Below, one piece after another: positions 756-22,015 of a DNA stretch of 64,000 nt (the stretch's first letter is position 1; each line of letters begins with the position of its first letter). The notes under the pieces are model-generated. The model had not been told where the DNA came from. It saw only the letters and a list, made by a program, of their open reading frames with translations, and did no database searches. The stretch spans positions 15,336-79,335 of the IMG/VR virus record IMGVR_UViG_3300032893_000025. One strand, 5' to 3'. The position numbers were made by a program, and so were the translations under genes. This stretch comes from a virus.

Positions 756-3700
756 TTATTTATTTATTATCTGTTGTGTCAATGACTGAATTCTTGCAGT
801 AGTATTAGTTAAAGGAAACCAATTCTTTATAGCTACCCAAGTTTTAGATTGATCCTTATAAATTCCTTGATGATACATATCATCCCCTCCTGTTATTAAT
901 GTTGTAGCTCTTGCTAGTACTTTTTCTGTATCAGTAATTACTTTAGCCATTGGTAAAGGATCTCTTAATATAGTTTTAAATTGAATAGGATCAATATAAA
1001 AATCTATATCCATCTGCATCCTATTAAGTTGATTAATCCAGAAGAAAGATAAATATTTTATATCAGATTCATCATCGTCATCATTTAAAATGACTCCTTT
1101 AATTAATAAAGCCAATGCTGTAACAGCTATCATAGACATTATTTCTGTTAAATTAGCTCTCATATTAGCAGCATCTACATCATCTAATCTAGACAAATTA
1201 GTTTTCTGAAAAGCTATTTTTCTTAGTAACTGTAATGTACCGTTAAATACCCCACCAAAGTAGCCATATCTATCAAAAAACTGCCCATAACTTCTCCATC
1301 TACCTTTCTGTTCAATACCACTAATAGGATTCACCTTACCAGCGTCCATTTGTCCAAGTCTTGTATAATATGCATTAATCATCCATTTTCTAAATACTAA
1401 TAAGGATCTTCCTAATATTGTTGAATTAGCAGGTATTGGAGAGTCTGGATCATAGTTACCATGAATATCTTTTATAACCTTATCTATCTTTAATTTAGTA
1501 TTTGCCTCTAAATTTGATGGCATTTCAACTCCATTTAATAATTCTCCATTATCATTATAAGCTTCAAATAAAGATATATCTTTTCCATTTAATTTAACTT
1601 TAGTGTTTAATAACATAGCTATCATTACAGGAGCCTGATTTAAATATTCAGATCTACTCTGTAATGTAAAGGGAGCTAACCAATTAATTCCTTTTTTAAC
1701 TCTTTCAGATACATATATTTCATTTTGTAGTTCTTTTAGAGTATCATATCTATCCATTAAATGTCTAACTTTATTCATTTGAGATAAGGTTAAGTTATAC
1801 CCTTTATGAAGCTGAGCATTATTAAATCTTCTACCATCAGAGCCTTCTATAAGATTATTAACATAGCCCACTGTGGAATTCATTATAGGGGAGAAAAAAT
1901 TCCATCCTAATCCCTTTAATCTAACCCACATATTAAGTTGGTCTCCAATTTTAGAACCTGCTTTTACTCCTCCTAATTCAGATAATTGCTTTTCTAATTT
2001 TCTATCTATTTGTAGAAATTCTTTCTTAGTTATGTTATGTTCATCAAAATCTTTTATGTTTTGAGCCTTTAAAGCCTCTATTTCTTCTCTTACTTTTTGC
2101 TCTTTGGATGTATATACTTTTTTTCCAAATTTTAATTCTACCTTATGCATAGCTTCTCCATAAAACTTCTTCATAAAATATTCTACAGAATCTTTAAAGT
2201 TATTCAATCCTTTCTTAGAGATAGGATCTCCATATTGGTCATTTATAACTTCACCAGCATTATTAGTTTCTTGTTCTAAAGCATTATTAATAATACCCTG
2301 AGTAATACTCATAGCATCCTCAATTTTAGCTTTATGTTTAAACCCAATAGCCATTAATGAATAAGCTTTTACTAGTTTTTCTAAATCATTACTTCTTTCA
2401 TTAGCAACCTGATCTTTAATTTCTCTAGTCCATTCTTGTATTTGTTCTACAGTTGGAGTATTTCCAGTTTGTTGTTTAAGTTCTAAAGACTTTCTGAATA
2501 TATAATCTTTAATTATTTTATCAATATTGGTTATATATCTTACTCTTAACTCTCTTTCTCTCTCACCTTCAACATCTCTTTTTTCACTAGATTCTGTAGT
2601 TACAGATCCTTTAGTTCTTATACTTTCTTTCCATAAATCCCATATAGGAGTTAACCCACCACTCATACCATTTTGGGTATACTGTTCTATTAAAGTCTTT
2701 TCCATAAAAGGAAGAGTATTAACCTGAAACTCTTCGGTCATATCTGATGGTAAATAAGAATTTACTTCATGTAGAGTATCTATGATATAGTTATATAAAG
2801 CTAATAGCTTATCATTGTTTTCTATTTTTTCAAAGTTTTTATCATAAAATTCAGTATTCTTGCCATTAACAATTCTTCTAGGTACAGTCTTTGTATATCT
2901 ATTGCTTGGGGTTATATAATCTCCTGCTACTTTTTGTATAGTACCTTCAAAAAAGTTTTCTGCAACTAAATAAGGACTAAATTTAGCATCATATTCTCTT
3001 ATTTTTATTTCCTTAGCAGCATCTTCTAGTAAATCATCGTCTAATTGAGATATAAAAACATCTCTATCATCTTTAAATTGTTTAAGTTGCTTTTCAGCAG
3101 CTTCTAAATAAAATTTATATCCTTTTTGTCCCAAATTAGTTATTAATTCTTGTCTGTGATTCTGTATATCACTATCACTAAAGCTATTTTCATATAAATC
3201 CTTATTGGGAAACAATTTTCTAGCATCTAACATTAGAGAGTATTTCTTAGTTTCCGTAATATAATCTCTAATAAGTTTATTTTTTTGTTTTCTTCTTTCT
3301 TCTGGGTCAGCAATTTCATCAGCAAGGTTTAATTCTTTTTTAAAATTTCTGCTTCTAGCTTTATTCCAATCGAAATAAGCTTGGGTATATCTATAAGTTA
3401 AATCTCCAGTTTTCCTATTATCTGTATTACTTGCTCTTTGAGCAAACAATTCATTAATATCCTTTTTACTATAAGATTTACCTATTTCTTTAAATACATC
3501 ATCTAAACCATCAAATACATACTTAGCTTCTTTATGTGTTTCAAAGCTTGCTTCCTTATTCCATACAAACATACTTTTAGCTAAGATATTATCTGTTTCA
3601 CTAATATCTAAAGTAAGACTTGTTAATTTACCAACATCTGTTAGTAAAGCTTTATAATCAACATTAGCATCTTCTCCCCATTTTTCTTTAACTTTATCTT

Positions 3701-4352
3701 CAATTTTACTTTGAGCTATTTGTAACCATTTATTCCATAATCCCTCAGCCTTGGCTTGGTATCTTTTTAATTCTTCTCCTATAGGATACATTAAAGTATT
3801 CTTAGGGTCTTGTATTTGCTTTAATTCATTTTCATCGAAGAATATATGTCCTTCTTTAAAATCACCAGCAGCCATCCACAATCTTATAGGTCTTTTTATA
3901 TTAGTTAAATCCGATAAAGAAATATCCTTTTTATCTAATATTTTTCCTACTTCTTCTATATCTTGTTGAGCGAATTTTAAAGAATCTTCTAATACCTGAG
4001 ATTTAGAAAGTTCTCCTATTTTAGTATCAGTTTCTTCAACCTGTTTCTCAAGATAAGAAACTTCTTTATTGAGTTTTAATTTTTCTTCTCCAGATTTATC
4101 TTTAAGTTCAGCTCTTTTTGAACTTATTCTTTTGTATAATAAACTTTTCTTTTGTTGTAAATTATCTATAATAGTTTGAAATCTTGGTTTTTCAGTTTTA
4201 GCCTCAATTAAACCTTCATCAACGAGTTGTTCTAATGAAGGTATCTCTTCTCCATTAGCTAGCCATAATCTATAACTTTCAGCATCTGAACCAGTGATTT
4301 TAACTAATTTCTTCCATTCAGGAGTATTGCGATTTGGACATTTAACTGCCAT
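756..4352 (-). CDS. Large virion cargo/ejection protein (crAss-like, RNAP-associated block)
   Basis: 1198 aa, helical; N-terminal CPN..TPEWKKL motif; hydrophobic helix near the C-terminus; last gene of the giant-protein block, directly after the RNAP gene. Confidence 0.7.
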   Translation of the reverse strand: MAVKCPNRNTPEWKKLVKITGSDAESYRLWLANGEEIPSLEQLVDEGLIEAKTEKPRFQTIIDNLQQKKSLLYKRISSKRAELKDKSGEEKLKLNKEVSYLEKQVEETDTKIGELSKSQVLEDSLKFAQQDIEEVGKILDKKDISLSDLTNIKRPIRLWMAAGDFKEGHIFFDENELKQIQDPKNTLMYPIGEELKRYQAKAEGLWNKWLQIAQSKIEDKVKEKWGEDANVDYKALLTDVGKLTSLTLDISETDNILAKSMFVWNKEASFETHKEAKYVFDGLDDVFKEIGKSYSKKDINELFAQRASNTDNRKTGDLTYRYTQAYFDWNKARSRNFKKELNLADEIADPEERRKQKNKLIRDYITETKKYSLMLDARKLFPNKDLYENSFSDSDIQNHRQELITNLGQKGYKFYLEAAEKQLKQFKDDRDVFISQLDDDLLEDAAKEIKIREYDAKFSPYLVAENFFEGTIQKVAGDYITPSNRYTKTVPRRIVNGKNTEFYDKNFEKIENNDKLLALYNYIIDTLHEVNSYLPSDMTEEFQVNTLPFMEKTLIEQYTQNGMSGGLTPIWDLWKESIRTKGSVTTESSEKRDVEGERERELRVRYITNIDKIIKDYIFRKSLELKQQTGNTPTVEQIQEWTREIKDQVANERSNDLEKLVKAYSLMAIGFKHKAKIEDAMSITQGIINNALEQETNNAGEVINDQYGDPISKKGLNNFKDSVEYFMKKFYGEAMHKVELKFGKKVYTSKEQKVREEIEALKAQNIKDFDEHNITKKEFLQIDRKLEKQLSELGGVKAGSKIGDQLNMWVRLKGLGWNFFSPIMNSTVGYVNNLIEGSDGRRFNNAQLHKGYNLTLSQMNKVRHLMDRYDTLKELQNEIYVSERVKKGINWLAPFTLQSRSEYLNQAPVMIAMLLNTKVKLNGKDISLFEAYNDNGELLNGVEMPSNLEANTKLKIDKVIKDIHGNYDPDSPIPANSTILGRSLLVFRKWMINAYYTRLGQMDAGKVNPISGIEQKGRWRSYGQFFDRYGYFGGVFNGTLQLLRKIAFQKTNLSRLDDVDAANMRANLTEIMSMIAVTALALLIKGVILNDDDDESDIKYLSFFWINQLNRMQMDIDFYIDPIQFKTILRDPLPMAKVITDTEKVLARATTLITGGDDMYHQGIYKDQSKTWVAIKNWFPLTNTTARIQSLTQQIINK

Positions 4353-4398: not shown

Positions 4399-7300
4399 GT
4401 ATTTCTTCATTAGAAATTAAACTTATTTTATCTTTTAAATTTAACTCTCTCTGATCTAACTTGATATAATAATATTCTTTTTTATTATTTAATCCTATAT
4501 CTTCTCCTACAGTTGTTCCTATAGTAGCTTTATATAAGACTTGTTCTTTATTAATAGTTTGTGCCCTTTTAAGCATTGCTTTATATCTATCACCGTTGCT
4601 AAATCTATCATCAACCATTAATACTTTTTGCCTACCATCAGAGTTTAATTCTCCGAATCTATTTAAAGTATCTTCTTTACTTATTGTATTAGGTAATAAA
4701 TATACTTCTCTATCAGTTATTTTAGATAAATCTATCTCTCTCCATTGATTACCATATTCATCATTAATAATTTTAACATTGTCTTTACCAAATTGTTTCT
4801 CTAATATATTACCTACTTTAATTTCATAGAAAGCTTCAATAGGTTTGAGTTTTTCTATACCTTGAGATTTAAATTCAGCTTTTTTATCTTCTAGTCTTTT
4901 TATTTCACTAGGAGCTTCTTTTATTTCCCCAATTTTTTGATTTCTAACTGATATTTTATGTTCAAGAGCAATTACTTTTTGCCTATCTTCAACTAAATAT
5001 CTGTCACTATTAGAAGAATTATTAAATATTGCAATAGCTTCCTCTCTGGTGATTGGTAATATTTTAATTTGAGGTTTATTTCTTTCTGTATTATATCCAT
5101 GTATATAATACCCTTCATAATTTTCACCTAATGCATCTCTATGCTCTTGGTATGAATCATAACCAAAATAGGATTTATTATATATTTCTTTTCTACTATA
5201 AGTACTTTCTACTCTAACATAACTATAATCTTCAAATCCATATTTATTTGCAGTTTTTCTATCTACAGTTGGTTCTTGAGTTGTTAAATTGGAACTAAAA
5301 GTCTTTTTTAAAGTAGTTATTTCTTTACGAAGATTGTTTATCTCTTCTTCTAATCCTGGTATAGAATCTTCCTTACCTAAAAATGTTTGTGTATGTTCTA
5401 TAGCTCTATTTATATTTAATATCTCATTGGCCAATGTTTCGTGTCCTTCTACTTTAGCAGCAGTTTCACCTTTAGGAAATAATACTTTCTCATATCCTTT
5501 CTTAGCACTATCTTGAATAATAGATTTAATAAAGAATGTAACCCAGTTATTATCTTTGTTAAGGAGTTGGAGAAATTGATTTTCTGGACTATTATCAGAA
5601 ACAAAGTTCCATCTTTCTTTACCGGTTAAAGATTTATAATCTCTACCTTTCTGAAATAAATCAGATTGTATTTCTAATATACGTCTATCTTTAGTTATAT
5701 TCCCACCAATAGTATTTCTTTTAGTTCTAGGTTCACCTGTAGATAAATCTGGTTCCTCATCAGTAGTAATAGTAGCATTGTTTACTTTAGTATCACTTCT
5801 AAACCAACCTATACCTTTATCTGTACTAAATTGAGCATGCCCTTTAATATTAGGTGTAATTAATGGAGTAGATATTTCATTTTCAGTATAGTTAGTACCG
5901 CCCGGTACTGTTAGATTTGAATAATAAGATGTAGATTGTTGATTCTTATATCTCTTAGATTCTAAGTAAGTTTCAGCTTCTTTTCTTGTATTAAAAGAAA
6001 TATAAGCTCCATCATCTTCTTCAACAATATACTCAGTTTTTATAATTTTCCCTTCTTTATCTTTAAAATGCGATTCTTCTATGTTTCCAGTAAGAGAATC
6101 AAACTTTTTCTTAGCAGTATTAACTTCAACAGTATAACTATAATTAGCAAGAATAGAAGATATAATTTCTTCTTTGGTCATTCCATCTTTAGCAGATTCT
6201 TTGAACATATCAACCTGTTCTTTAGGAACTCCTTGTTTCTGAAGATCGTTTAACCAACCTTGTAATTTAGAAAATTCAAATTTATTACGTTGAATATTTT
6301 GTAAGCCTTTTATCAATTTTAAAGTATAACTAATAGCAGCTTCGTTAATTCCAGGATATAATGTTTCTATTGTCTGGCCTTCTTGTGTGAAAGCTTGAGT
6401 AGTATCATGTTCAATAATAGTTAATACATCATCTATAGCGGAAGCTAACATAGAGTTTTTATTTACATTTAATCCTAAAGCATTAAAGAATTGTTTTAAT
6501 TTATCTAAAAATACTTCAAACCAAGGTTTGCCTTCACTATTCGCAGGTATTTCATTAAGTATCTTCTGAAACTCACCATCAGTCATTAACATAGTTACAA
6601 ATTCTTCTAAATTTGTAGCTCCATAATATTTACTTAATTCTTCATCAGTCATAGATTCATACTTCTCAGTTCTTTTAGCTATAAACTTATCCATAACTTC
6701 TTTAGTAATGGATGATTTATGCCTATTAAAACTTTGATTTAAGCTATCTATAGCATCTTTAACTTTAGGATCTAGTTTTTCTCCTTTACTCCAAGCTTGA
6801 ATAGCAGGTATAGTAAATCCATGCAATACTTCATGTAATACAGTTTTACTTAATTCATTTACTGAAGTATGTTTTTCATTATCTAAATTAATTTTTACAG
6901 TACCATTAGCATATCTTCCTCTTACTTTTTCAAGTTCTGTAGATAATCTTAAATTTCTATCTCCGTAATTATTTAATAGTTCAGACGCTAATAATTGATA
7001 ATATTGGTCATCTGAATTAATAACTATATTTTCAAGTACCCTTTTAACATTACCTTTATCAACTATTTCAAGTATATCTCCAGGTTTCTTAACTTTAGTA
7101 GATTCTGGATTAATTGTAGTTTCTGAATAGTAGTTGTTATCTATTGGAAATCTTGAAGTAGATTTACTAACTTCAGCTTTATTTGTGTTAGTTATAAAAC
7201 TTGAAGTAGCTACTTCATCAGTATTAGCATTAAATTCATCTATACCGTTAAATCCTAAATTATCTACTCTAAAATACATAGGGTAACCTAAAGAATCATT

Positions 7301-10300
7301 TCTTCCATAATATCTAAATAATACATTCTTACTACTTCCTTTAGGTTTCATAGGATCATTAATAGCTAAAAATTCAGGAGGAACTTGGTCTTGCCCTCTT
7401 TTAACATAGAAATCATCATTCTTTAAACTAAATCTTGTAATACTAACTCTTCCTTTTGGTAAGTTTTTATCCTTAATTACATTATCTATATCCTTTGTTC
7501 CAACTCTTTCAACCTTATCAGCATTATGTTGTATATACTGTTCGATAAAGTTCTGTAACATCCAGTAAGGTAATTCAAATGAAGGAATCTTCATAAAATC
7601 TGAATCTTCGAATTTCTTATTAGAGTATAATTCAGATAAACTATCAGCAAATCCTATAGAATATAAATAAGATGGCGGTATGTGTTTAATATATTGAGTA
7701 GCTTCTTGTACACCCCCAGACAAATAAGCTGCTTCAACTAAGTCTTTGAATAACTTTCTTGTAGTGTAATTAGTTCCTTCAATAGCAGTATCATTCGTAT
7801 ATAAATCTATAAAAGAAGTATATGTAGCTAAATTAGCAGCGTCATCTCTTACAGCATCTATTTTAATTGTAGATGGTCTACCATTCTTATTTATATCAGG
7901 TTGTACTTTACTTAAAAAAGGATGATCTTTATATTTAGATTGAGCTTTTACTTGTTTAACTATAGAAGCTAAAGATTTATTACTGTCGCTATCTATAAAT
8001 AATCTTTCTCTTTCTAAATTAAGATCTCCTCCAAATAATCCTAAATTATTTAATGTATACAAATAAGATTTAAAATTATTCCATATATCTCTTCTAAAAT
8101 CAGCTTTACTAACTATACTTCTGTCTTCTCTACCAAGTAATTGTTCAATCTTGTTAAACATGTAAGTTATACCTTGTTCATTATAAGGTAGAAGTTGTTT
8201 CCACAGTTTATTATTTTGAAGTAACCCATAATATGTAGAAAAACCTTGGATTGTTGTTGGTTTAATTAAATTTCCTAAATTATCAAATTCTCCCAATATA
8301 GATTCTATATTTTCTATATTCACACTTTGTAATCTTTTAACTGCTTCTTCTTTAGATAAAGTTTCAAATAAATTCTTACCCAATCCTTTACTATCTGTAT
8401 TAATAGCTGATTGTATAGTACTTAAGGTTTGAGATGGTTTATCTAAATAAAGCATTTGATCTAAAGCAGTCAATTGTATATAATTAAAGTCTCCTGTTGG
8501 TTCTAATATAGAATTCTTTAAATTCTCTAAAGACAATCCTTTTCCTTTACTATATTTTTCATCATATAAATTACTATCATAATTTGTAGGTCTATATTTA
8601 GATAATATTTCTGAATATACTTCATTTTCTATATTAGGATTAAACTCTTTAATAGAAGATCTTTTAGATTTAAGTAAATTAAAGTAATCTTTTATAATAG
8701 GTTGAGCCATAAAATATCCGACTTCTTCTTCAAATCCTAATTGTGCTAGTAAGTTAGCATACCTAAAAGTTTGAGAATTTAAATTAAGTTTATCTAATAC
8801 TTGTAACTTTTCATTGTCTACAGATACAGACTGAAGACCTGATATAATTTCTGATTTATAATACTTACCACTTAATGTTTTATTTCCACTTAAATCTCCA
8901 TCAGATACTTTGTTACCAAATCTAACTCTAAATCTTTGTTTAATTCCTTCTGGAGTATTATAGAATAAATACATTCCTTTATCCTGTATAGCAGAATTAA
9001 ACATAGATGCATTACTTGTTATACCAGTACCAGATTTACCAGCTAATGCATTAAATCTCTTAGTCATTTGGTACTTATCTGATAAGGCAGTGAAGTATTC
9101 ATCTTTAGTCTTTTTATTCTGAATTTCTTTAGCTATTTCTTCGAACTTCCATGAACTTAAAGGAGTGTGTATTTGTTTTTGAACTTCTTGATTAATGTTT
9201 TTATGAACTGCAAGTCTTATATCTAATAGTTTGTTTTGTAGAGATTTGTTCCATACATCATCAGCCATTTCTAAGAATGATGCTTGTCTATTAAGTTGTC
9301 TACTTTTTCTTTCATCAAGTTCAAAAGCTAAATTTCTTAAAGTAGATTCTTCTAATTTTAATATATCTTCCTTAGAACTAAAATCTATCTTTTCTAACTT
9401 TTTACCATTAAGGTAAGTATTATACATATAGGTGTATAACTTATCCACATCAAAGTCAGAACCCATCTGAGCCAAGTAATCTCTTGTAGTAACAGCTATA
9501 TCCCCAGATGTTTTAGGTAAAAATCCTACTATTTCAACATAACTTTGAGAGTTTAATCCTTGATTAGGAATACGCATACCAAAGATTTGCAATATTTCTT
9601 CAGGTAATTTAGTCATATCTATTTTCCCATCTTTCACAAACCTATTTATATCTAATAAATTTCCATTATTATCTTTAAATTTCCAAGGTATTAGTATTTG
9701 TGCTGGTAATACCTTACCTTTTTCTACTCGAGATGGTAATAATTTACCTGTCCATTTATCTGTATAAATAATTCCTTGAATATCTTTAGAAGCTTCTTCA
9801 TCTACAACTTTAGCTTTTTGGTATCCTTCCTCTGTAGATAATACAAAAGAATTACCTTTAAACTTCATTTTTAGTACTCTATTCTTAACAATAGCGTTAA
9901 GTAAAGCTTCATATTTAATAGCTGAAGGACTATAAGGTAAGAAAGTTAAATACTTATCCAATTCTATACCTTCCATATCAGCTATAGAATACCCTCTTAA
10001 CATACCTTCTTCCTTAAGAATATCTCTTATTGCAGGTATATTTAAATTTCCAGACTCATCATAAACTTCTTTTTTTAAACCTTCAAATCCATTCTTATAA
10101 AGTTGTTCATAATGTTCTTGATAAATCTTTTCTAAATCTCTTCCTTTGTAAGAATTATTATTATATTCAAATCCATCTATATCATGTAAATTAGTAAATA
10201 TATTCTTATCAGCCTGAGAAACCCTATTAATAGCATCTTTAAGTTCATCATAGGGAACATCTTGTTGCAATCTAAATCCTTTTCTACTAAGTATTTTAGT

Positions 10301-13300: not shown

Positions 13301-16300
13301 CTTACCTAATATATTACTATAATCTACTCTTACTACAGACTGTACTGCATAGATTCTTTTACCATTATCTAATTGTTGTCCTTTTACATTTGTCTTAGAA
13401 GTATTATATAAAAAGGTTTTGTAAGATATTGGACTGATTTTATCATCTTGTCCAATAAATGCAATATTTTGTGTATTGTTAAAAGCATTTAAATTAGTAT
13501 TAATTCTAAACTTATGTAAATTTAAAGCAAGTTGTCTTAATACCATTTCTTTATGTTCCTGATTTTCTTTATTAAGGAAGTAAACTTTTTGTTCATCTTT
13601 TTCATTTAATAAAGCAAACTCAATAGAACCTTTAACTGTTGTATAATAACTTCCTTTAGGAATATTATTTATAATATCTTTTAAATTACTTTTCCCAGTA
13701 TTATACCCATGAATAAATAATTTAATATAGTTATCTAATCCTCTTATATCAGATATGTCGTAACCTGTTATTTCAAGAACTTGTTTAACTACTTCAGGAT
13801 TTTCTCCAGATAAATAAGCATCTATAGCTTTTATTATAGATAGTTTAATTTGATTACTATATTCACTATTACCTATAGTATCTTTAAACACAGGATAAGC
13901 TAGCCTTTCTCCATTTTGCAATGGTAAAACTACATAGGTAGCACCACTAACCAATCCTTTAGAGTTACTTAAATCTTCTCTATAATTCTTTAAATCTCCT
14001 GTACTAGTAGCTATATCAATAACAATATTATCATTACCTAACGATTCAGTTAAATTAACTGTTTGCCCTTTAGTAAGAGTAAATAATTTACCGGAAGTTT
14101 TATCTGTTATATTTGTTTTAAAAGATCCATTTTTAACTATATAATCTCTTATAAGTTTTAAATTTTCTTTATCTTGGTCTAAATCTCCATAAACATTGGA
14201 ATCATTAATCCATTGTTCTGTATGTAAAAAAACATTTGTAGGATTGTTTTTATAGTATACTCTTATAGGAACAAGACTATTATATTTTTCAGGAGATAAT
14301 TTACCTTTTACAGAACCCCAGGTAACAGTTTTATTACTTGTTATGTCTTCTGTATATACTTCTATCTCAGGGTTATCTTCCAATCTTAACTCTACTTCAT
14401 CCCCAATATTAAAATTATCTGGGTCTAATATAACCTGATCTGCATTAGTATGCAATTCATTATTTACATTAGTTTTATATAGTGTTCCTAACATTACTCC
14501 TCTTTCATAATCTCTGGATAAATAAGCTAGAGCATTATACCCATCAGTTATTTTCTTTCCTTCATACACAGGAGTACCATCAAAATCTTTAGTTGTAGCA
14601 TAATTAGAATTAGAAACTTCTCTAACTATATCATCACTACTTGTATTTATTTGTTTAACTTTAGATTCATCAATATATTCTGGGTCAATAACTACTTTAC
14701 TATTTTCTTCAGTATCTACTTCATCTATTTCATTTTTAGTAACTGTTACAGGAGCAACTCCACTAGATATTATATTAGCAGTATGAATAGATCTATCTAA
14801 AGAAGATGAATAAACTTTAGGAGTTATCCCTAATTTATTATGTAAATCATTGGCTTCTTTTATACCTCTTTTATCTAGTTGTGCGTTATCACTTCTAAAG
14901 TTTCCTTTTTTATTATCTTCTGTTTCTCCATGTCTTACTACATGAATAGTTTTACCAGTATTCGTAGTTATATCAAATGTACTACCTGTATTACTATCCA
15001 TTTCTGAATATTCTTTTCTAAAATTTTTATCAGATAAAAAATCTACATTTTCATTATTATTCCAATATCCTTTATCTTTTAACAATTTAATTAAGTTAAA
15101 TATAGTATTATGAGTGGTAATAGTACTATTATTTTCTCCTTTATCTATAATATCTTTTACAACTGAAGTAACTCTATTATATGCATTGGAAAAACTTTCT
15201 CCTCCGCCTATCATAGATTTATCAGGATTATTAATTATATTATCTTTTACAATATTATCTTTTTCTTTTGTTTGTTTGGTTCCCGTTTCTGAACCTAAAT
15301 CTATAGTGTCTAATCTATTATCTACTTCAACATTATTATTTGGAGTAATTTTATTTATTTTAGGTTCTCTAGTTATAGGAATAGAAGTTTCTTTGGATTC
15401 TTCTTCTTGAGCCATTCTATCAAATTCTGCTGAATTCTCAGGAGAAATACCTTTTTCTGCTTCTTCTTGTTCTAATATAGCATCAAAATCATCCTTTTGT
15501 CTTTTCTTGTTTTTAATATTTTCAACTTTAGCAACCTTTTCCTGGCTCTTAATAGTTTCTTCAGTTTTATTTTGTGTTTCAGATGCTCTCTTATTATAAT
15601 TATCTGTAGTTTCTGTAACTCTTTTTTCAATTCTATTTAATCCTTCTTGAGTTATAGATTCTTTATAGGCATTTGCTAATTGAGTTCTCTTATTATTTAG
15701 TTGTATATAGTCTGTAACTAATTTAGTAGCATTTTCTCCTGTAGACTCTAAATTAATTGCATGATCTTTTACAACCTTATCTAAATTATCTAGGTTTTCT
15801 TTAGTTTTATTTAGTAAATAAGTTTGAGTAGCACTAAATATTTCAGGAGATTTAGCAATCTGTAAATTTAATTCTCCAATTCTTTTATTTACATTATCTA
15901 TGTTTCCAGCCATATCCCATAATACAGTTCTTGCATCATTAGAAATAGTAGGAAATCTTAAATCTAAATTTTCTTTAAGTTTTGTTAAGTTTTTAGCTTC
16001 GGTTATTAACTTATCTATATATTCTCCAGTACTTTTTTTATCACTAGTAGTAGGATCAATACCAAAAGTTTTTTCAAATTCTTCTTTGGGCAATTGTTTT
16101 AAATCATTTAATTCATCTTCAATTAAATCTCCTTTACCGGTTTCAATTCTACTAAGTACATAGTTTTTAAATAAATCATGTTGCAGATTTTTATATTGGT
16201 AAATATCCCCAGACTTTATAGCTTCATCCATATCTCTTCCAATAGATTCGGATCTTATCGCTTCATCTATTAAAGGTTCATTCTTTTTAAATATATCTGA

Positions 16301-17701
16301 AACTTTATATTTATTAAGATAATCTACTGCATTTTTAGTAGCTTCATCTTTTTCTCTATTCTCTTTTAATTCCTCTTTTATTTCTCCAGTAGCAACTCCT
16401 GATAATATACCAGTTAACCCCCCAAGAATCATTGATTCTACACCACTTTTAGTACCAAAAGACTGATTAAACCCATAACCTATAGAGTTTAATTTATCTG
16501 CAAATGTATTTCTAGCGGGGTCATCATACTTTCTAGTCCAATAATCTGTAGATGCGTTTTGTGCAATAGTTTGCATATTTTCTTCATTAGACTCCGTAAT
16601 AAGTCCTTTAAAGTATGGAGACAGTTTATTAAATTTTGATGTAGGTTCAGGAATAAAAGTTCCTTCAGCATCTCTAGTAATGCCATTTAATAATGCTTTG
16701 CTTTCATTTTTAGCCCCAGACAATATTCTACCAAATTGTATATAATCAGATGCACCTAATATTGCTAAGTTAGTTAAATAATCAATATTACCAGCAGCAG
16801 AAGAATATTTATCAATTTCGTTTAACTCCTCTGCATTAGGATCTCTTTTATTCTTTTCTTTAAAATGATTTATTATTTCTTCTGTGGTTTGTTGTTTAGT
16901 TTGTAATCCTTCAAAAGATGCCTCATTACCAGCAGCTATTAAAGTTGATCCTAAAGTTTGTATACCATTTGTTAATTTAATTCCTTTGCCTACTTGATTT
17001 AAAGCTCGTGTAAAAGCTTCATCCTCTCCAACCCCCTGTTCAACTAAACTACCTGCTAATTTATTTACTGCTGCCAATTCTTCTTCATATTTGCCAGCCA
17101 TTGCTAATTTGCCTAAAGCACTTAATCCTCTACCCATTACAGCACCAGATCCAATAGCTCCTACTGTAAATCCTGCATTCTTTAATAATTTATCTGCTAA
17201 AAAATTAACTGTAAACCAGTTATTAGGACTAAAAGCATCTGCATTCTTTTCTTTATCTGTATAATAATTAGGAAACCATTTTTCCATATTCTTACTAAAC
17301 TGGTCATAAGCATTACTTATAGGATTATCGTATACTTCTGACAAAGCCTGTGCTTCAGTTTTATTTGGATTAAAGGAATTTACTATCCCAGAAAGTATCC
17401 CATAAGGTAAACTTGTAACTGTTGTAGCAAAAGTTGTGGCAGCCAACCCGGCACCTTTAATAACACCATTAGCAAATTGTTCCATTGCTGGTTGTCTTGT
17501 TCCTCTAATATCTTCTATATTGGGGAGATCATATACAGTAGTATTTAAATCAAATTTAGTATTTAATGTATCTCCAATATACTCTCCTTGAGAATCTTTG
17601 TTATTATAATTACTTATAATACTTTTATAATATTCTGTTGGGAAAATTGAAGGTTCTTCCTTACTTCCGTAAAGAGAATCGTAGTCTATATTATTAGGCA
17701 T
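4373..17701 (-). CDS. Giant virion-packaged DNA-dependent RNA polymerase polyprotein (two-barrel, crAss-type) with zincin protease and other accessory domains
   Basis: 4442 aa; RIPNQG and catalytic GSDFDVDK motifs (9443-9457), as in crAss-like virion RNAPs (DFDID in phi14:2); HEVLH..E zincin motif (6821-6835); RHGET histidine-phosphatase motif (14927-14935); hydrophobic Gly/Ala-rich N-terminal region. Confidence 0.92.
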   Translation of the reverse strand: MPNNIDYDSLYGSKEEPSIFPTEYYKSIISNYNNKDSQGEYIGDTLNTKFDLNTTVYDLPNIEDIRGTRQPAMEQFANGVIKGAGLAATTFATTVTSLPYGILSGIVNSFNPNKTEAQALSEVYDNPISNAYDQFSKNMEKWFPNYYTDKEKNADAFSPNNWFTVNFLADKLLKNAGFTVGAIGSGAVMGRGLSALGKLAMAGKYEEELAAVNKLAGSLVEQGVGEDEAFTRALNQVGKGIKLTNGIQTLGSTLIAAGNEASFEGLQTKQQTTEEIINHFKEKNKRDPNAEELNEIDKYSSAAGNIDYLTNLAILGASDYIQFGRILSGAKNESKALLNGITRDAEGTFIPEPTSKFNKLSPYFKGLITESNEENMQTIAQNASTDYWTRKYDDPARNTFADKLNSIGYGFNQSFGTKSGVESMILGGLTGILSGVATGEIKEELKENREKDEATKNAVDYLNKYKVSDIFKKNEPLIDEAIRSESIGRDMDEAIKSGDIYQYKNLQHDLFKNYVLSRIETGKGDLIEDELNDLKQLPKEEFEKTFGIDPTTSDKKSTGEYIDKLITEAKNLTKLKENLDLRFPTISNDARTVLWDMAGNIDNVNKRIGELNLQIAKSPEIFSATQTYLLNKTKENLDNLDKVVKDHAINLESTGENATKLVTDYIQLNNKRTQLANAYKESITQEGLNRIEKRVTETTDNYNKRASETQNKTEETIKSQEKVAKVENIKNKKRQKDDFDAILEQEEAEKGISPENSAEFDRMAQEEESKETSIPITREPKINKITPNNNVEVDNRLDTIDLGSETGTKQTKEKDNIVKDNIINNPDKSMIGGGESFSNAYNRVTSVVKDIIDKGENNSTITTHNTIFNLIKLLKDKGYWNNNENVDFLSDKNFRKEYSEMDSNTGSTFDITTNTGKTIHVVRHGETEDNKKGNFRSDNAQLDKRGIKEANDLHNKLGITPKVYSSSLDRSIHTANIISSGVAPVTVTKNEIDEVDTEENSKVVIDPEYIDESKVKQINTSSDDIVREVSNSNYATTKDFDGTPVYEGKKITDGYNALAYLSRDYERGVMLGTLYKTNVNNELHTNADQVILDPDNFNIGDEVELRLEDNPEIEVYTEDITSNKTVTWGSVKGKLSPEKYNSLVPIRVYYKNNPTNVFLHTEQWINDSNVYGDLDQDKENLKLIRDYIVKNGSFKTNITDKTSGKLFTLTKGQTVNLTESLGNDNIVIDIATSTGDLKNYREDLSNSKGLVSGATYVVLPLQNGERLAYPVFKDTIGNSEYSNQIKLSIIKAIDAYLSGENPEVVKQVLEITGYDISDIRGLDNYIKLFIHGYNTGKSNLKDIINNIPKGSYYTTVKGSIEFALLNEKDEQKVYFLNKENQEHKEMVLRQLALNLHKFRINTNLNAFNNTQNIAFIGQDDKISPISYKTFLYNTSKTNVKGQQLDNGKRIYAVQSVVRVDYSNILGKEVTPEIEEKKTKVSSEKSTKIETKNKLKLKTNLNESAFDLPTTVGDESLMQKSSDKLLISELGAYKQESITNHITRNIIRDLYNNPTQDIVKLRNDYLNKYKTQFEDDLSELNKYSDNELEPIQIKYRDQFFKPIIDKWNVIERSVIYKVNKIEGIVTPLPEGEDMEISETKDNEKTDWDKNSYEHNLKDSLTQQVKRFFSDINKVDSSGNPVYGILKEAEVMDFNEVYEKLQTWTAGLEPDFNQITDVLRQYTKAHPWVEQVITKLESSKEQEKNGFVTSMTNHQIKHYMVMWSQDKETKKYSTKTILVNENSIYNAVLDNWNTNVKETGLFKVNNEGQYILDENKVKELKDRYEKIKESKNTDDARKWLEEFGIGINNQTWNELVSKGIQRTDRFGAPYTVKFDKLLLDNYFVFNVLNKALTTQGKLSLDEHNILDESVIKSLARMDAKYNDNAVFSNAFRSGGKSIYSFGKNKYLINTVRDLKNGLAKEILDSNSPFEKKSWWLNNIGEGNYVFNSNFEAGTIGLEAFKKIGTKTRDGRELYNLNPDEYELTSLGLLTGSIPDNSGTDSRVIILLYPTTSDKTTAMTIKTIAAPINFTTDGNLKDNSIDFLYDQLVLPEINRIRKWEELKKSGVEFNNKEFEQGGHKFLLLPKLNELKDIWDSNDNLNSDIFSDKWNTTLKDTIKEYVDKLVNEKLTDWNSYGIIDGDKSNFIDTTVLQDKKVLLGVAKENYNKAIATDMVYQYLIGNANTFMSIVGDPALFYKSKATNILSQVEDTFINVGKRLAADIAPGTEIADSNKGFYRQLMVDDRAINSLNIDQLQELLGKDGAKDYLATGTLKEGTNAQEWTTFPEWLYVEFKSGNISEDLYKAATKFIKKKISQGDYYYTSALNKELSGNKEWENLVYQVHKPVYVNNQFNQQLGIRERIYIKTSAYPLTPELTKGNDLDKIRIMMEKNNIQRLAFSSGIKAGNYKTPVKLWDSDNNIKELTPEEINNSTKILSRKGFRLQQDVPYDELKDAINRVSQADKNIFTNLHDIDGFEYNNNSYKGRDLEKIYQEHYEQLYKNGFEGLKKEVYDESGNLNIPAIRDILKEEGMLRGYSIADMEGIELDKYLTFLPYSPSAIKYEALLNAIVKNRVLKMKFKGNSFVLSTEEGYQKAKVVDEEASKDIQGIIYTDKWTGKLLPSRVEKGKVLPAQILIPWKFKDNNGNLLDINRFVKDGKIDMTKLPEEILQIFGMRIPNQGLNSQSYVEIVGFLPKTSGDIAVTTRDYLAQMGSDFDVDKLYTYMYNTYLNGKKLEKIDFSSKEDILKLEESTLRNLAFELDERKSRQLNRQASFLEMADDVWNKSLQNKLLDIRLAVHKNINQEVQKQIHTPLSSWKFEEIAKEIQNKKTKDEYFTALSDKYQMTKRFNALAGKSGTGITSNASMFNSAIQDKGMYLFYNTPEGIKQRFRVRFGNKVSDGDLSGNKTLSGKYYKSEIISGLQSVSVDNEKLQVLDKLNLNSQTFRYANLLAQLGFEEEVGYFMAQPIIKDYFNLLKSKRSSIKEFNPNIENEVYSEILSKYRPTNYDSNLYDEKYSKGKGLSLENLKNSILEPTGDFNYIQLTALDQMLYLDKPSQTLSTIQSAINTDSKGLGKNLFETLSKEEAVKRLQSVNIENIESILGEFDNLGNLIKPTTIQGFSTYYGLLQNNKLWKQLLPYNEQGITYMFNKIEQLLGREDRSIVSKADFRRDIWNNFKSYLYTLNNLGLFGGDLNLERERLFIDSDSNKSLASIVKQVKAQSKYKDHPFLSKVQPDINKNGRPSTIKIDAVRDDAANLATYTSFIDLYTNDTAIEGTNYTTRKLFKDLVEAAYLSGGVQEATQYIKHIPPSYLYSIGFADSLSELYSNKKFEDSDFMKIPSFELPYWMLQNFIEQYIQHNADKVERVGTKDIDNVIKDKNLPKGRVSITRFSLKNDDFYVKRGQDQVPPEFLAINDPMKPKGSSKNVLFRYYGRNDSLGYPMYFRVDNLGFNGIDEFNANTDEVATSSFITNTNKAEVSKSTSRFPIDNNYYSETTINPESTKVKKPGDILEIVDKGNVKRVLENIVINSDDQYYQLLASELLNNYGDRNLRLSTELEKVRGRYANGTVKINLDNEKHTSVNELSKTVLHEVLHGFTIPAIQAWSKGEKLDPKVKDAIDSLNQSFNRHKSSITKEVMDKFIAKRTEKYESMTDEELSKYYGATNLEEFVTMLMTDGEFQKILNEIPANSEGKPWFEVFLDKLKQFFNALGLNVNKNSMLASAIDDVLTIIEHDTTQAFTQEGQTIETLYPGINEAAISYTLKLIKGLQNIQRNKFEFSKLQGWLNDLQKQGVPKEQVDMFKESAKDGMTKEEIISSILANYSYTVEVNTAKKKFDSLTGNIEESHFKDKEGKIIKTEYIVEEDDGAYISFNTRKEAETYLESKRYKNQQSTSYYSNLTVPGGTNYTENEISTPLITPNIKGHAQFSTDKGIGWFRSDTKVNNATITTDEEPDLSTGEPRTKRNTIGGNITKDRRILEIQSDLFQKGRDYKSLTGKERWNFVSDNSPENQFLQLLNKDNNWVTFFIKSIIQDSAKKGYEKVLFPKGETAAKVEGHETLANEILNINRAIEHTQTFLGKEDSIPGLEEEINNLRKEITTLKKTFSSNLTTQEPTVDRKTANKYGFEDYSYVRVESTYSRKEIYNKSYFGYDSYQEHRDALGENYEGYYIHGYNTERNKPQIKILPITREEAIAIFNNSSNSDRYLVEDRQKVIALEHKISVRNQKIGEIKEAPSEIKRLEDKKAEFKSQGIEKLKPIEAFYEIKVGNILEKQFGKDNVKIINDEYGNQWREIDLSKITDREVYLLPNTISKEDTLNRFGELNSDGRQKVLMVDDRFSNGDRYKAMLKRAQTINKEQVLYKATIGTTVGEDIGLNNKKEYYYIKLDQRELNLKDKISLISNEEILDRMKKCR

Positions 17702-19599
17702 TAGTATTCAACTTTATTTTGTTGTCTTAAAGGTAACCATTTATAAGTATACTCACTCTTTAAATTCATCTCATTAAGCTTCTCTATATGGTCTTCCAAA
17801 TCATTTATAGAAAATACTACCTTATTACCATTTCTATCTAGTAAAGGACTACCACTTCTTCTATCATATACATCTATCCTTGGAAGATCTTTATCTGTTT
17901 TTAACCCCTTATAACTTGGGTTATAAACATAAGATAAAATATCTCCAGTAGGATTAATAGATAGTGGTTTATCATCCCCAGATGCTACAGCATTTTTTAT
18001 TGCTTTTAATCCCATAGAATATTCGGCAGTTGGTTCATCAGGAGAGAAGTATAATTTTTTATAGTTAGTTTTTGAATCCACAGCTAATTTACCAGTAGTT
18101 TTATTTACAGCGGCATTAGTAGGAATATTGATATAATATTCCCCGCTAACTTTATTATATCTTGGGTTATATTCTTCTGAGTCTAATACTTCTCTAATTA
18201 CTGATTCATTAACTCCAATTTTTTTAGAAATATCTCCTAAAGACCTAGCATTTATATTTTCATTTTCCACTCTAAAATTTGGGCTAGTCATTTCCTTTAC
18301 TGTAGTTTTTAACATTTTAGATGTTAAAGGATTTAAAATAGGTCTGGTAACTGTATATTCTCTCTTAACAGCTTCTGAATCCTGATCTATAAATTGAGCT
18401 AATTCATAATCACTTTTAGGGTCTCTTCCCATTTTCATTTTAAATAGATCCTTATTTTTTTCCAAAATAGGTTCTATAGAATTTATTTTATCTAGATCAT
18501 CTTGAGTTATTTTTATTAGTCCTTCCATATATGATTTATTATATGGATTAACACTCTTAGGATCACTTGCTACTCTTAACCCTTCTTCCTGTTGTTCAAG
18601 TTTATCATTAAGTTCTTTTTTAACTTTTTTAACATCTACATCCTTACTTGACATCCCTGTTATATTTAATCCTTCAGTAACAGATTTACCAGTATCTAAA
18701 AAAGTATTCTCTACTGTATCCTGAGCTTTAGGACCAAATACATATATATCTGACAAATCAGATTGTGCTTTTTTCTTTCTCATGGCATCTTCGTATTGTA
18801 ATTTAGCCATAAAGTCATCTATAATGTGTCTATCTTCTCCTTTACTTACCATACTCCTTAAAGCATCTTCAATAAATCGTTTAGTATCCCCTTTATATTG
18901 TTCTTGCATTAAAGGATCTATATTAAATGGAGTTTTAGCTTCGAATTCTGGTACATATTTTTCAATTCTACTCTTCAGTTCTTCATTGTCAATAGCATTT
19001 AAACCTTTTTCAGATATAGTTTGTAAATATCCCCATTTTTCAGTAGGTTGTAATTTACCTTCTACAACCATCTGATCCATAGTTTTACCAATATCTCTAT
19101 ACACTATATCCCAATAATCTGGTCTTGCTATAGGTTTATAAGTAGGAATATTTAATTGCCCCTGTTCATTATATGTAGGAGATGTTAAAGCTTGTTGTAA
19201 TTCTGGAGTTTCTATCAATTGTTTTTTAGCCCTCAATTCAGTAAGAGTAGGTAATATTTTCTGATACTCATCATATCTTCTCTTTAAATTAGAAATGATA
19301 GGTTGAGTTTGAGCTATATTTCTTACAATCTCTTTAGAGGCAGCTCCATAATCCCCAGCATATTTATTTTTAACTAAATCTTCAACATTATTTTTAAATC
19401 CTTCTAGTGTTTTATTTAGATAGTTTACATCAGGAGAAACTACAGGAATAGATCCTATATTAGCCTCAGCTTCTGCTGTAGTTTGATAAGCTTGATTAAA
19501 TTTTTCATTTTTTTTAGCAGTTTCATCAGCTATCATTGAAAATACCTGATCGTCATATCTTGGGTCATATTGTACCCCTTGTAATATATCGTATGGCAT
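17701..19599 (-). CDS. Virion cargo/internal protein
   Basis: 632 aa from the ATG at 19599, chosen over 19650 to avoid overlap with the upstream gene; TAATG-coupled to the RNAP gene; positioned between cargo protein and RNAP as in crAss-like phages. Confidence 0.65.
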   Translation of the reverse strand: MPYDILQGVQYDPRYDDQVFSMIADETAKKNEKFNQAYQTTAEAEANIGSIPVVSPDVNYLNKTLEGFKNNVEDLVKNKYAGDYGAASKEIVRNIAQTQPIISNLKRRYDEYQKILPTLTELRAKKQLIETPELQQALTSPTYNEQGQLNIPTYKPIARPDYWDIVYRDIGKTMDQMVVEGKLQPTEKWGYLQTISEKGLNAIDNEELKSRIEKYVPEFEAKTPFNIDPLMQEQYKGDTKRFIEDALRSMVSKGEDRHIIDDFMAKLQYEDAMRKKKAQSDLSDIYVFGPKAQDTVENTFLDTGKSVTEGLNITGMSSKDVDVKKVKKELNDKLEQQEEGLRVASDPKSVNPYNKSYMEGLIKITQDDLDKINSIEPILEKNKDLFKMKMGRDPKSDYELAQFIDQDSEAVKREYTVTRPILNPLTSKMLKTTVKEMTSPNFRVENENINARSLGDISKKIGVNESVIREVLDSEEYNPRYNKVSGEYYINIPTNAAVNKTTGKLAVDSKTNYKKLYFSPDEPTAEYSMGLKAIKNAVASGDDKPLSINPTGDILSYVYNPSYKGLKTDKDLPRIDVYDRRSGSPLLDRNGNKVVFSINDLEDHIEKLNEMNLKSEYTYKWLPLRQQNKVEY

Positions 19600-19600
19600 A

Positions 19601-22015
19601 TTATCTAGTTCTAACTTTAAACTTAGGTCTTGGGTTATACCAAGGAGCATTGGGATCTTTAATTATATTGTAGTTCTCATTTGTTGCATTAAGAACATCA
19701 TATTTTTCTTTTTGTTGCAAATATTGAGGAATTGCCTGTGCTATATTTTGCCAATATTGCATATTCTGTCTTTTATATGCATTTTCATTTTCTCTGTTAG
19801 CTAACTGAGTATTTAAATAATTTGATATATTAGTTAGTTTAGATTGTTGTTTAGCTTGTGCATTAAACTGCTCTTCTCGTGATAAACTATCTAATATAGT
19901 ATTATTAACTCCTTCATCTATATCTGTATCTACTCCTGGTAATACTGATGCATACTGAGTTGGACTAATTCCACTATTTCTTAAAGCAGCAATTCTATTA
20001 GCTCTTGAAGTAACTCCTTGTTGTCTAGCAGATGTTCTAGCTCCTTCTAAGTTAATTAACTCAGGAGATATTGTAGGACTTTGTATATCGGGTAATCTAT
20101 TATTTCTATTTGCTAATAATAAAGCTAAATTAGCACCAACTGTTCCTACTAATCCTAAAGCATTACCCCTATATGGACTATCTTCTTCAGTTTCTGGTTT
20201 AAATTGTGGTAATTTTGGAACATTTATTGGATCTCCATATTCATACTTAGGTAGTCCTGAATTTAAAGTACCACCAATAGCTTTCATATATCCTCCACAA
20301 TTCATTTTACCACCACAATCCATACAACCACCACCACAATATTGTTCTAATTCTCCCCCATCTTCTTTTTTATGAAACCCATGATGTTTTTTAAATGTTA
20401 AAGCTAAAGCGCGTCTACGTCCTGTGCAGGTACTTTTAGTCATAGGTGTACAATACCCCTTATGGGCTGGGTTTACAGCTTTTTTAATCCATCCACCTTT
20501 AGCATATTCAGTTTCATCTCCATTACTATAATTAAACTCTAATTCTCCACCTTCTTCTAACATTTTTTCTCTAATAGCATTTGCTCTGGCTTCATATAAC
20601 CATTCTGGCAATTCTCCACCCCTTTCAAACTCTACCCCTTCTAAACCTCCACCAAGTTCATGTTTCCAATTTGCAGCATTTTTTGCAAAATTTGCCCTCT
20701 TAATTATTGTTGAACTGTATTTGTCTTTATGAGCCATTACATGTTTGGCAGCTTCTTGAACTCCCATTCCATGAGTATTAGCCCAATCTGTGAACTTTCC
20801 TTTATTCTCAGGTTTTATATGAATAGACCCCCCATCTCTATACTCTACAGAATTCATGTGTTCATCTAATCCCTTTTTGTATTCTTCTTGAGAATTTGCT
20901 ATTCCACCTAATTCCATATACATAGCATCTTGACTAATTTTATCATTAGGTCTACGAGAATACTTTTTAATTACTTTTCTTGCTTTATCTGAATAACCAA
21001 GTTTATCTGAAAAAATAAATGGGGATTCTTCATTAGGAAATTTAACTCCTATTTCATTACCTTCTACTTCAGCTCCTGGTTTACCACCTAATATATATGA
21101 AGGATTTCCTGTAAATGAATCTACTGGAATACCACCACCTTTATGAGATGCTCCTTTATAATCTATAGTATACCCACCTGATTCGTACCCTTTAGTACCT
21201 TCTCCACTTCTAAATTTAACAGTAGGTTTAGGAGGAGTATAAAAAGTATTCCAAGAATTTGGAATAGTTTTATACTGATTCTCCATTGTTTTATATAATG
21301 GATTATCTTGTTCTATATGTCTTACTCCAGCATTATTTGGATCAATAAAATATCCCTTATCTTTTCCAAATCTTTGATTCCAATTATTTATATAAGATTT
21401 AAATAAATCATTTACAGTAGCTTGTTGCATATCATCTTTAGGTCTTAATAATACTGTAGCATAATGACCTATACTATCTGGAGATTGATATAAACGAGGA
21501 TCATTAATATCACCTATATTGTTTATATATCTTGCTCTTTGTGCCATATTACCTTCTGTACGTGGAGTAACTAAGGTACCACCACCTGGAAATGTGGGAA
21601 TATTTGCAACTCTGGGAGCATTAGTTGTACTAAATTTTGCTTTAGCTTGCATTATTCTGTTTTCAAATTCTTCCTTTTCAGCTTCCCTTTTTCTATCCCC
21701 AGGTTTAACTCCTGAAAATAAATCAGATAACATATTAACTTTAGCCATAGGATTAATTATCATATCTAAAGCACCAGCTCCTTTACTATTATACTCTCCA
21801 TATTTATCTTTAAGTAAATTACTAGAAGTAGAATCTACTCCTTGTAATACAGAACCGGCTCCTGGTAATGCACTATTAGCTACAGAACCTAAAGTTTGTT
21901 TTCCAAATTGGGAGTACTGATCTGAGTCGTCAAACCCACCATTGTAATATTGAACTAATGGAGGGTAACCATTAGAGTTGTAAGGATCTCTCCATGAGTA
22001 TTTTCTCTTTTTCAT
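19601..22015 (-). CDS. Cargo protein (C1-like) with repeated xxxGG motifs and small basic modules
   Basis: 804 aa, directly after the muzzle gene; G.SH..GG.P..AEVEG.E motif; IHIKPENKGKF..KRANFA module; hydrophobic helix near the C-terminus. Confidence 0.7.
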   Translation of the reverse strand: MKKRKYSWRDPYNSNGYPPLVQYYNGGFDDSDQYSQFGKQTLGSVANSALPGAGSVLQGVDSTSSNLLKDKYGEYNSKGAGALDMIINPMAKVNMLSDLFSGVKPGDRKREAEKEEFENRIMQAKAKFSTTNAPRVANIPTFPGGGTLVTPRTEGNMAQRARYINNIGDINDPRLYQSPDSIGHYATVLLRPKDDMQQATVNDLFKSYINNWNQRFGKDKGYFIDPNNAGVRHIEQDNPLYKTMENQYKTIPNSWNTFYTPPKPTVKFRSGEGTKGYESGGYTIDYKGASHKGGGIPVDSFTGNPSYILGGKPGAEVEGNEIGVKFPNEESPFIFSDKLGYSDKARKVIKKYSRRPNDKISQDAMYMELGGIANSQEEYKKGLDEHMNSVEYRDGGSIHIKPENKGKFTDWANTHGMGVQEAAKHVMAHKDKYSSTIIKRANFAKNAANWKHELGGGLEGVEFERGGELPEWLYEARANAIREKMLEEGGELEFNYSNGDETEYAKGGWIKKAVNPAHKGYCTPMTKSTCTGRRRALALTFKKHHGFHKKEDGGELEQYCGGGCMDCGGKMNCGGYMKAIGGTLNSGLPKYEYGDPINVPKLPQFKPETEEDSPYRGNALGLVGTVGANLALLLANRNNRLPDIQSPTISPELINLEGARTSARQQGVTSRANRIAALRNSGISPTQYASVLPGVDTDIDEGVNNTILDSLSREEQFNAQAKQQSKLTNISNYLNTQLANRENENAYKRQNMQYWQNIAQAIPQYLQQKEKYDVLNATNENYNIIKDPNAPWYNPRPKFKVRTR

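Follow-up and report, generated by a model that had tools for sequence, protein, structure and literature searches.

How does a phage protein come to carry the two halves of a histidine phosphatase in reversed order, and are those halves still one working enzyme? This question is raised by a stretch of viral DNA of 64,000 nucleotides (positions 15,336 to 79,335 of IMG/VR record IMGVR_UViG_3300032893_000025; hereafter, the window), in which one long open reading frame (ORF) encodes P0001, a protein of 4442 amino acids that also holds the core of a crAss-type virion RNA polymerase (RNAP). An earlier note on this DNA had proposed that a circularly permuted phosphatase domain of the phosphoglycerate mutase (PGM) type is inserted in this protein. 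On the strength of sequence profiles and a structure model, we conclude that residues 784-984 very probably constitute one circularly permuted histidine-phosphatase domain.

The order of the halves is apparent from profile searches. The Pfam family His_Phos_1 (PF00300), which has a curated cut-off of 21.7 bits, matches the whole of P0001 with 62.4 bits in two stretches whose order is reversed, and by these scores the arrangement is far above chance. Each stretch exceeds the cut-off when scanned alone, with 30.8 bits (E 2.9e-7) for residues 790-870, which correspond to the normally C-terminal half, and 45.8 bits (E 7e-12) for residues 919-996, which correspond to the normally N-terminal half. 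His_Phos_1 is the single family detected in a Pfam scan of P0001, and a six-frame PF00300 search of the whole virus record returned the same two pieces and no others. Furthermore, a phmmer comparison with the PDB aligned both halves to Geobacillus PhoE (1EBB/1H2E) in reversed order, pairing the first segment with PhoE residues 76-157 and the second with PhoE residues 3-69. The extent that the earlier note had given for the domain, 14758-15331, was therefore essentially right, the structured core being slightly wider (14750-15352), and its RHG motif lies at 14927-14935 as had been stated. The domain is flanked by segments rich in E/K or in D/E/T that receive low confidence in the structure model, which supports flexible linkers at the places where the earlier note had described low-complexity ones.

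Restoring the canonical order by computation gives a direct view of how the halves fit together. A profile built from nine canonical-order phosphatases was compared with the query and 35 relatives, both in their native form and after in silico de-permutation. The native query gave two reversed matches, to canonical positions 73-181 and then 3-69 (50.5 + 59.6 bits), and the de-permuted query gave one continuous match of 116.9 bits to canonical positions 4-180 of 206. The result was the same in nearly all relatives, with the junction always at canonical position ~70-75. After de-permutation, the canonical profile is matched only to approximately position 180 of its 206 positions.

Structure prediction likewise joins the two halves. 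AlphaFold2 (AF2) run on the single sequence gave an unusable model, with a predicted local distance difference test (pLDDT) score of 38, and the model used here was made from a 36-sequence alignment of permuted relatives. This model has a pLDDT of 88 and a predicted template modeling (pTM) score of 0.81, and it places both halves in one compact domain, as had been anticipated for a PGM-like fold. Its core (model residues 25-225) reaches a pLDDT of ~95-98, and its flanks are disordered. There are five strands together with the expected helices, and every canonical element is present once. The chain begins with canonical strand 3 and passes through the cap helices and the long GES...R helix to canonical strand 4, which bears the second His and is followed by a helix. 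Canonical strand 5 comes next and leads by a 5-residue turn into canonical strand 1, which carries RHG; a helix, canonical strand 2 and a final helix complete the order. In addition, a standalone relative of only 192 amino acids (P0016) has an ESM Atlas model with a pTM of 0.90, and its nearest structure cluster is His_Phos_1.

The geometry of the fold offers a reason why such a rearrangement might be tolerated. SCOP describes a mixed sheet with strand order 324156, in which strand 5 is antiparallel. An account of the superfamily likewise gives a six-stranded sheet with one antiparallel strand (PMC12051542). Because strand 5 would lie beside strand 1 and antiparallel to it, a hairpin from 5 to 1 could close the old termini neatly. 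The chain would thus start at canonical strand 3, run through the cap region, the second-His strand and strand 5, pass by a tight hairpin into the RHG strand, and end after canonical strand 2 plus the next helix. Strand 6 and the C-terminal tail would have been lost, and the new termini would be located at edge strand 3.

We also considered the possibility that the halves do not fold together, and that they are instead what is left of a decayed tandem duplication, or were brought together by an assembly error. Tandem-duplicated canonical phosphatases do exist (P0112 and P0139), and the middle part of such a protein mimics the permuted order. However, this explanation is highly improbable. The host ORF is uninterrupted, the AF2 model takes in both halves at the pTM given above, and standalone proteins of 192-219 amino acids consist of exactly the C-half plus the N-half. 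Moreover, one breakpoint is common to ~127 clusters, and conservation is equal in both halves. The earlier note had named two outcomes that would speak against its proposal, namely an upstream half lacking its own profile match and halves that fail to form one domain. Neither occurred, and the independent upstream match and the joint fold argue for a genuine circular permutation of one domain.

The wider family was collected by a HMMER scan of 1.84 billion representatives, which yielded 348 matches at E <= 1e-3, and the best 152 proteins were analysed. The full permuted domain is present in one stretch in 124 of these 152, and approximately 127 protein clusters at 50% identity have the same order and the same breakpoint; two further one-stretch matches are the tandem duplicates of ordinary enzymes (P0112 and P0139) mentioned above. 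Carriers range from 176 to 5655 amino acids. The standalone forms, of 192-267 amino acids, begin at the L.T.DLG strand and stop just past the L.R...T helix, and one of them (P0016) is found on 10 contigs of up to 59 kb. Two unusual members were observed. In P0079 (1915 amino acids), the permuted domain is interrupted, after the strand-5 region and before the RHG strand, by an insertion of ~150 residues. In a 46-kb contig (IMGVR_UViG_2651869516_000092, locus L004:2971-3573), the permuted domain contains two in-frame TGA codons, one of them at a conserved Trp column (KLW); translation under code 4 removes both stops, suggesting that the phage is recoded with TGA as Trp.

The distribution of the permuted domain points to viruses. 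All 12 loci recovered on viral contigs (46-125 kb) span both halves. Among 185,579 cellular species genomes, 74 loci were found and none spans both halves, in a search seeded with one motif that does not prove absence. Essentially all of these cellular loci match one half only, with the RHG half alone in 71 of the 74, and from their sequences they look like ordinary enzymes that share RHGET[EQ]DN. Deposited phage genomes, 50,697 in all, were searched with tblastn: no permuted domain appeared, and the one match was a partial one to the N-half, on a 7.5-kb fragment.

The conserved residues are those expected of an active site. Conservation was counted over 129 aligned domain matches (Table 1), and H864 and H924, together with R923 and R970, are all present, as the earlier note had recognized for the catalytic His and Arg residues. 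The superfamily's catalytic quartet includes a second Arg and a second His, R58 and H149 in HFP numbering, and is accompanied by a pocket Asn (PMC12051542). Because this quartet and the pocket Asn are near-invariant, it can be argued that the catalytic centre has been maintained. The exception is the proton donor. As suspected previously, the Glu of the usual L.E motif is altered, and T799 of the RLDT sequence aligns with the catalytic Glu of PhoE. The position is Thr in 106 and Ala in 12 of the 129 members, and Glu occurs only in the 2 tandem-duplicate outliers.

Table 1. Location and conservation of features of P0001 in the window; conservation is given as the number of members out of 129.
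Feature	Residues of P0001	Window position	Strand	Basis or conservation	Content or remark
Host ORF, uninterrupted	4442 aa	4373..17701	minus	open reading frame	N-terminal region, permuted phosphatase, crAss-type RNAP core, C-terminal region
Structured core of the permuted histidine phosphatase	784-984	14750..15352	minus	AF2 model	
First segment (canonical C-terminal part)	790-870	15092..15334	minus	PF00300 positions 70-153	strand 3 with L.T.DLG motif, GGGESF, R843, TITTH strand with second catalytic His
Connector	871-918	14948..15091	minus	AF2 secondary structure	helix after second His, short helix, beta strand (model 149-153), 5-residue turn into RHG strand
Second segment (canonical N-terminal part)	919-996	14714..14947	minus	PF00300 positions 1-81	IHVVRHGETEDN, L..RG..EA helix, SSSLDRSIHTA
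RHG motif	R923-H924-G925	14927..14935	minus	R 129/129, H 129/129, G 128/129	predicted phospho-accepting His
Second catalytic His	H864	15110..15112	minus	His 124/129	T-H-N
Second catalytic Arg	R970	14792..14794	minus	Arg 128/129	L.R...T motif
Phosphate-pocket Asn	N930	14912..14914	minus	Asn 126/129	role from canonical enzymes (PMC12051542)
GES...R Arg	R843			127/129	
Extra Arg	R936			125/129	
Position of canonical proton-donor Glu	T799	15305..15307	minus	aligned to PhoE catalytic Glu	
Clade-specific acid	D929	14915..14917	minus	D 119/129	RHGET-E-D-N
RNAP catalytic-type motif DFDVD	2749-2753	9443..9457	minus		

The missing Glu raises the prospect that the domain is a pseudo-enzyme that has kept the pocket and lost its acid, and that it does no more for the giant protein than bind a phosphate or nucleotide or play a structural part. 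Consistent with this explanation, Thr or Ala takes the place of the Glu in 118 of the 129 members, and the second His is replaced (by N or S) in 5. Nevertheless, we consider a pseudo-enzyme unlikely. Over ~127 clusters there is little or no variation in the nucleophile His, both Arg, the second His and the pocket Asn, as would be seen in an active site that is being maintained. Families of the superfamily differ in their proton donor (PMC12051542), and thus the missing Glu does not exclude membership. Moreover, it is exactly in the clade with the lost Glu that position 929 carries an acid. A cross-tabulation finds Asp or Glu at 929 in 118 of the 127 sequences whose catalytic Glu is missing, and Trp, Ser or Gly in all 9 rows where it is present. 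Perhaps D929 is a relocated general acid or proton donor. Because the Glu loss and the acid at 929 represent one clade-level event rather than independent covariation, we keep this role for D929 as a hypothesis only. From the pattern of conserved residues, it is fairly likely that the domain is catalytically active via a phosphorylated His924.

If so, R923, H924, R970, H864 and N930 would rebuild the usual phosphate pocket. H924 would take the phosphoryl group to give a phospho-histidine intermediate, which water would then hydrolyse. Either D929 would take over the acid role, or the leaving group of the substrate would need little protonation.

The enzymes closest to this domain are known ones. 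The best matches in both sequence and fold are the branch-1 enzymes PhoE, CobC (alpha-ribazole-5'-phosphatase), iPSP1-PspA and Aquifex HFP (PDB 1H2E, 6E4B, 4IJ5 and 9MMH), and the 14 best PDB matches of the domain are all branch-1 histidine phosphatases. The P0001 domain has in common with these enzymes the PF00300 match, the RHG motif, the second Arg, the second His, the pocket Asn, the GES...R element and, as predicted, the alpha/beta/alpha fold. Unlike them, it is cut at canonical position ~70-73, its old termini are joined by a hairpin, and the last strand and tail are missing. It also differs in having Thr in place of Glu, the clade-specific Asp before the pocket Asn, and the invariant extra Arg R936. 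Finally, it is embedded in a giant phage protein, whereas the branch-1 enzymes are free cellular enzymes.

That giant protein belongs to the virion RNAP group. P0001 residues 2398-2797 match gp66 of phage phi14:2 (6VR4_A) with E 2.3e-27, and the DFDVD sequence fits the DFDxD motif that is a feature of crAss-like virion RNAPs (bioRxiv 10.1101/2020.03.07.982082). The phi14:2 protein is packaged in the virion, is translocated into the host together with the DNA and there transcribes the early genes (bioRxiv 10.1101/2020.03.07.982082). The two proteins have homologous RNAP cores and the DFDxD motif in common, and the major head proteins (MCPs) of the two phages are related; gp66 has 2180 amino acids and P0001 has 4442. 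P0001 also matches phrog_16227, annotated as a virion structural protein, with E 1.7e-90. Its gene lies in a structural block, on the same strand as a virion structural protein and the MCP, and the nearest relatives of the MCP are those of phi14:2 and other Crassvirales, at ~30-32% identity. By these sequence relationships, the source is a divergent crAss-like phage, whose record of 79,335 bases has an estimated completeness of 82% (CheckV). Of the description "virion RNAP polyprotein" in the earlier note, the crAss-type virion RNAP thus stands, given the 6VR4 match and the DFDVD motif, and the word polyprotein is unproven, there being no sign of proteolytic processing.

The phosphatase occupies different places in different giants. 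It is linked to RNAP in at least 12 carriers, lying upstream of the RNAP core in five (P0001, P0026, P0111, P0041 and P0007), inside the core in P0003, P0047, P0054, P0094 and, by eye, P0002, and at the extreme C-terminus in P0010, P0013, P0028, P0108 and P0110. The same permutation, which the earlier note had proposed to look for in other crAss-like RNAPs, is thus present at varied positions in carriers that share the RNAP region of P0001. This variation suggests that the domain is a mobile module, and it makes "inserted" a fair description. Furthermore, a separate protein of 1587 amino acids from an NCBI source (P0050) covers P0001 residues 62-980, including the phosphatase, with 367 bits. 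Because the N-terminal quarter of P0001 is thus found within a separate protein, P0001 looks like a cargo-type protein fused to an RNAP. Recent acquisition of the domain, judged by composition, was rejected: GC content is 25.5% for the phosphatase domain, 27.7% for the P0001 gene and 29.3% for the window.

From the homology to gp66, it is quite likely that the domain is delivered to the host with the virion RNAP. P0001 would be packaged in the capsid and enter the host by threading, along with the DNA; the domain would then refold there as an early-acting phosphomonoesterase, whose target could be a nucleotide-derived small molecule or a phosphoprotein. In this respect, the carriers resemble the polyvalent proteins (PMC5512222), which are likewise giant, modular and probably virion-delivered, with enzymatic domains strung together. 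Polyvalent-like features of other carriers include Kinase-PolyVal, LPD23, NUDIX and metallopeptidase-like domains. Specifically, the Pfam domains that co-occur in 45 other carriers are DnaJ and GcrA (2 each), and Kinase-PolyVal, LPD23, NUDIX, Sigma70_r4, DUF5856 and the DUF6782 metallopeptidase (1 each). A Pfam scan of P0001 itself found no LPD domain of the kind that defines polyvalent proteins, and Kinase-PolyVal and LPD23 each occur in only 1 of the 45 other carriers. The main text of the polyvalent-protein paper mentions neither a phosphatase nor a permutation (PMC5512222).

An active domain need not be an injected effector. It might act late in infection before packaging, be removed at maturation, or serve phage transcription by acting on nucleotides or RNA ends, and the linkage of the domain to RNAP in at least 12 carriers could indeed reflect a functional tie to transcription. 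We regard these options as quite improbable, because the domain also occurs as standalone proteins and in many giants without detectable RNAP homology, including many carriers of 1.3-2.1 thousand amino acids. The domain also lacks a conserved location with respect to the RNAP core, an argument against a fixed coupling between the two, be it structural or functional. In addition, the Kinase-PolyVal and LPD23 domains of other carriers are typical of injected multi-effector proteins (PMC5512222).

Overall, we lean toward the view that P0001 delivers an active phosphomonoesterase, a permuted branch-1 domain that is injected and has a nucleotide-derived metabolite or a phosphoprotein as its target; this view is moderately likely. 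The nearest named enzymes (CobC, PspA/iPSP1, PhoE and HFP) are small-molecule phosphomonoesterases. The associative clues to a target are weak, comprising one NUDIX fusion, one Kinase-PolyVal domain, one LPD23 domain and a recurrent C-terminal module. Several points weigh on the other side. The canonical Glu is absent (T799), so the domain could be slow or non-catalytic, and loss of the proton-donor Glu lowers activity in canonical enzymes. All NCBIfam scores, those for the nearest named families CobC, PspA and PhoE among them, are far below their cut-offs (the best is CobC, with 66 against 163 bits) and give no substrate-specific clue. We infer the presence of P0001 in the virion, its injection and the refolding of the domain from homology to gp66 and from the position of the gene in the structural block. 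Foldseek found no match at E <= 0.001 in the PDB or BFVD; it is a sequential aligner that is expected to miss a permutant, and thus this null result is not evidence of a new fold. An anti-defence role, as the earlier note had suggested, is speculation that we consider doubtful.

Relatives in other arrangements bear on how the permutation arose. Six canonical-order relatives (P0132, P0142, P0146, P0147, P0151 and P0123) also carry RHGET-x-[DE]-N, GESFN.F..R and TH[SN]. Five of the six have Thr at the Glu position, and P0151 has Pro and Leu instead. Unlike the P0001 domain, the canonical-order relatives of the Thr type have the RHG half first. In a FastTree analysis of 156 columns with uncertain rooting, these proteins fall inside or beside the permuted clade. 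One of them, P0123 (778 amino acids, metagenomic), joins a NUDIX domain at residues 60-212 to a histidine phosphatase of the Thr type with the order strand-5 hairpin, RHG half, second-His half. This is a third arrangement, and it is nested among permuted sequences; used as a query against viral contigs, P0123 found nothing.

The tandem duplicates P0112 (407 amino acids) and P0139 (406 amino acids) are canonical Glu-type enzymes in which a single stretch across the C1-N2 junction matches the permuted profile. Intermediates of this kind are to be expected if permutation proceeds by duplication. The canonical-order, third-order and tandem relatives together fit a duplication-and-trimming route, and the arrangement of these sequences suggests that the order changed more than once.

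Several other features of P0001 and its surroundings were observed. A C-terminal module (residues ~3780-4110; window 5372-6364, minus strand) has homologues that directly follow the permuted phosphatase in P0053, P0057, P0078 and P0109 (up to 146 bits), and in P0001 the phosphatase and this module are ~2800 residues apart. No Pfam, PDB or informative ESM-Atlas match was found for the module, which may be a functional partner of the phosphatase. An HEVLH zincin-type motif is located at residues 3623-3627 (window 6821-6835, minus strand), where Pfam detects no peptidase family. On the same strand upstream of P0001 are ORFs at 17701-19650 (649 amino acids) and 19601-22015 (804 amino acids), the second of which shares 50 bases with the first, and a 1198-residue ORF (756-4352) lies downstream. 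A PHROG search at E <= 1e-5 gave no match for any of these three ORFs.

In the literature that we covered, including Yutin 2021, the zeta-crAss paper, Iyer 2017 and the 2022 NAD-ADPr virus survey, we found no description of a permuted histidine phosphatase, and no phosphatase described for crAss RNAP proteins or for polyvalent proteins. Pfam and NCBIfam hold no model dedicated to the permuted family. The kind of enzyme is itself known; what is new is the Thr/Asp signature, the canonical-order and third-order relatives, and the recurrent partner module. We tentatively raise the possibility that the permuted family provides the superfamily with its first natural circular permutation, and that the permuted proteins are phage-restricted injected effectors with a moved catalytic acid that might strike a phospho-signal of the host, or a nucleotide involved in immunity or stress, early in crAss-like infection. 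Such a combined proposal is more likely to need revision than to hold in full.

These findings matter both for the superfamily and for the phages. For a long-studied superfamily, they provide a clean natural circular permutation in which canonical, permuted, third-order and tandem relatives can all be compared, and the permuted family shows an apparent relocation of the catalytic acid. Current annotation labels the carriers "phosphoglycerate mutase" or "PhoE", or sees half of the domain only, and a dedicated family model would improve phage annotation. The crAss-like phages are a dominant phage group, and the cargo that they inject besides RNAP is poorly known. A conserved and probably active phosphatase located on or next to an injected polymerase points to an unstudied early step of host manipulation.

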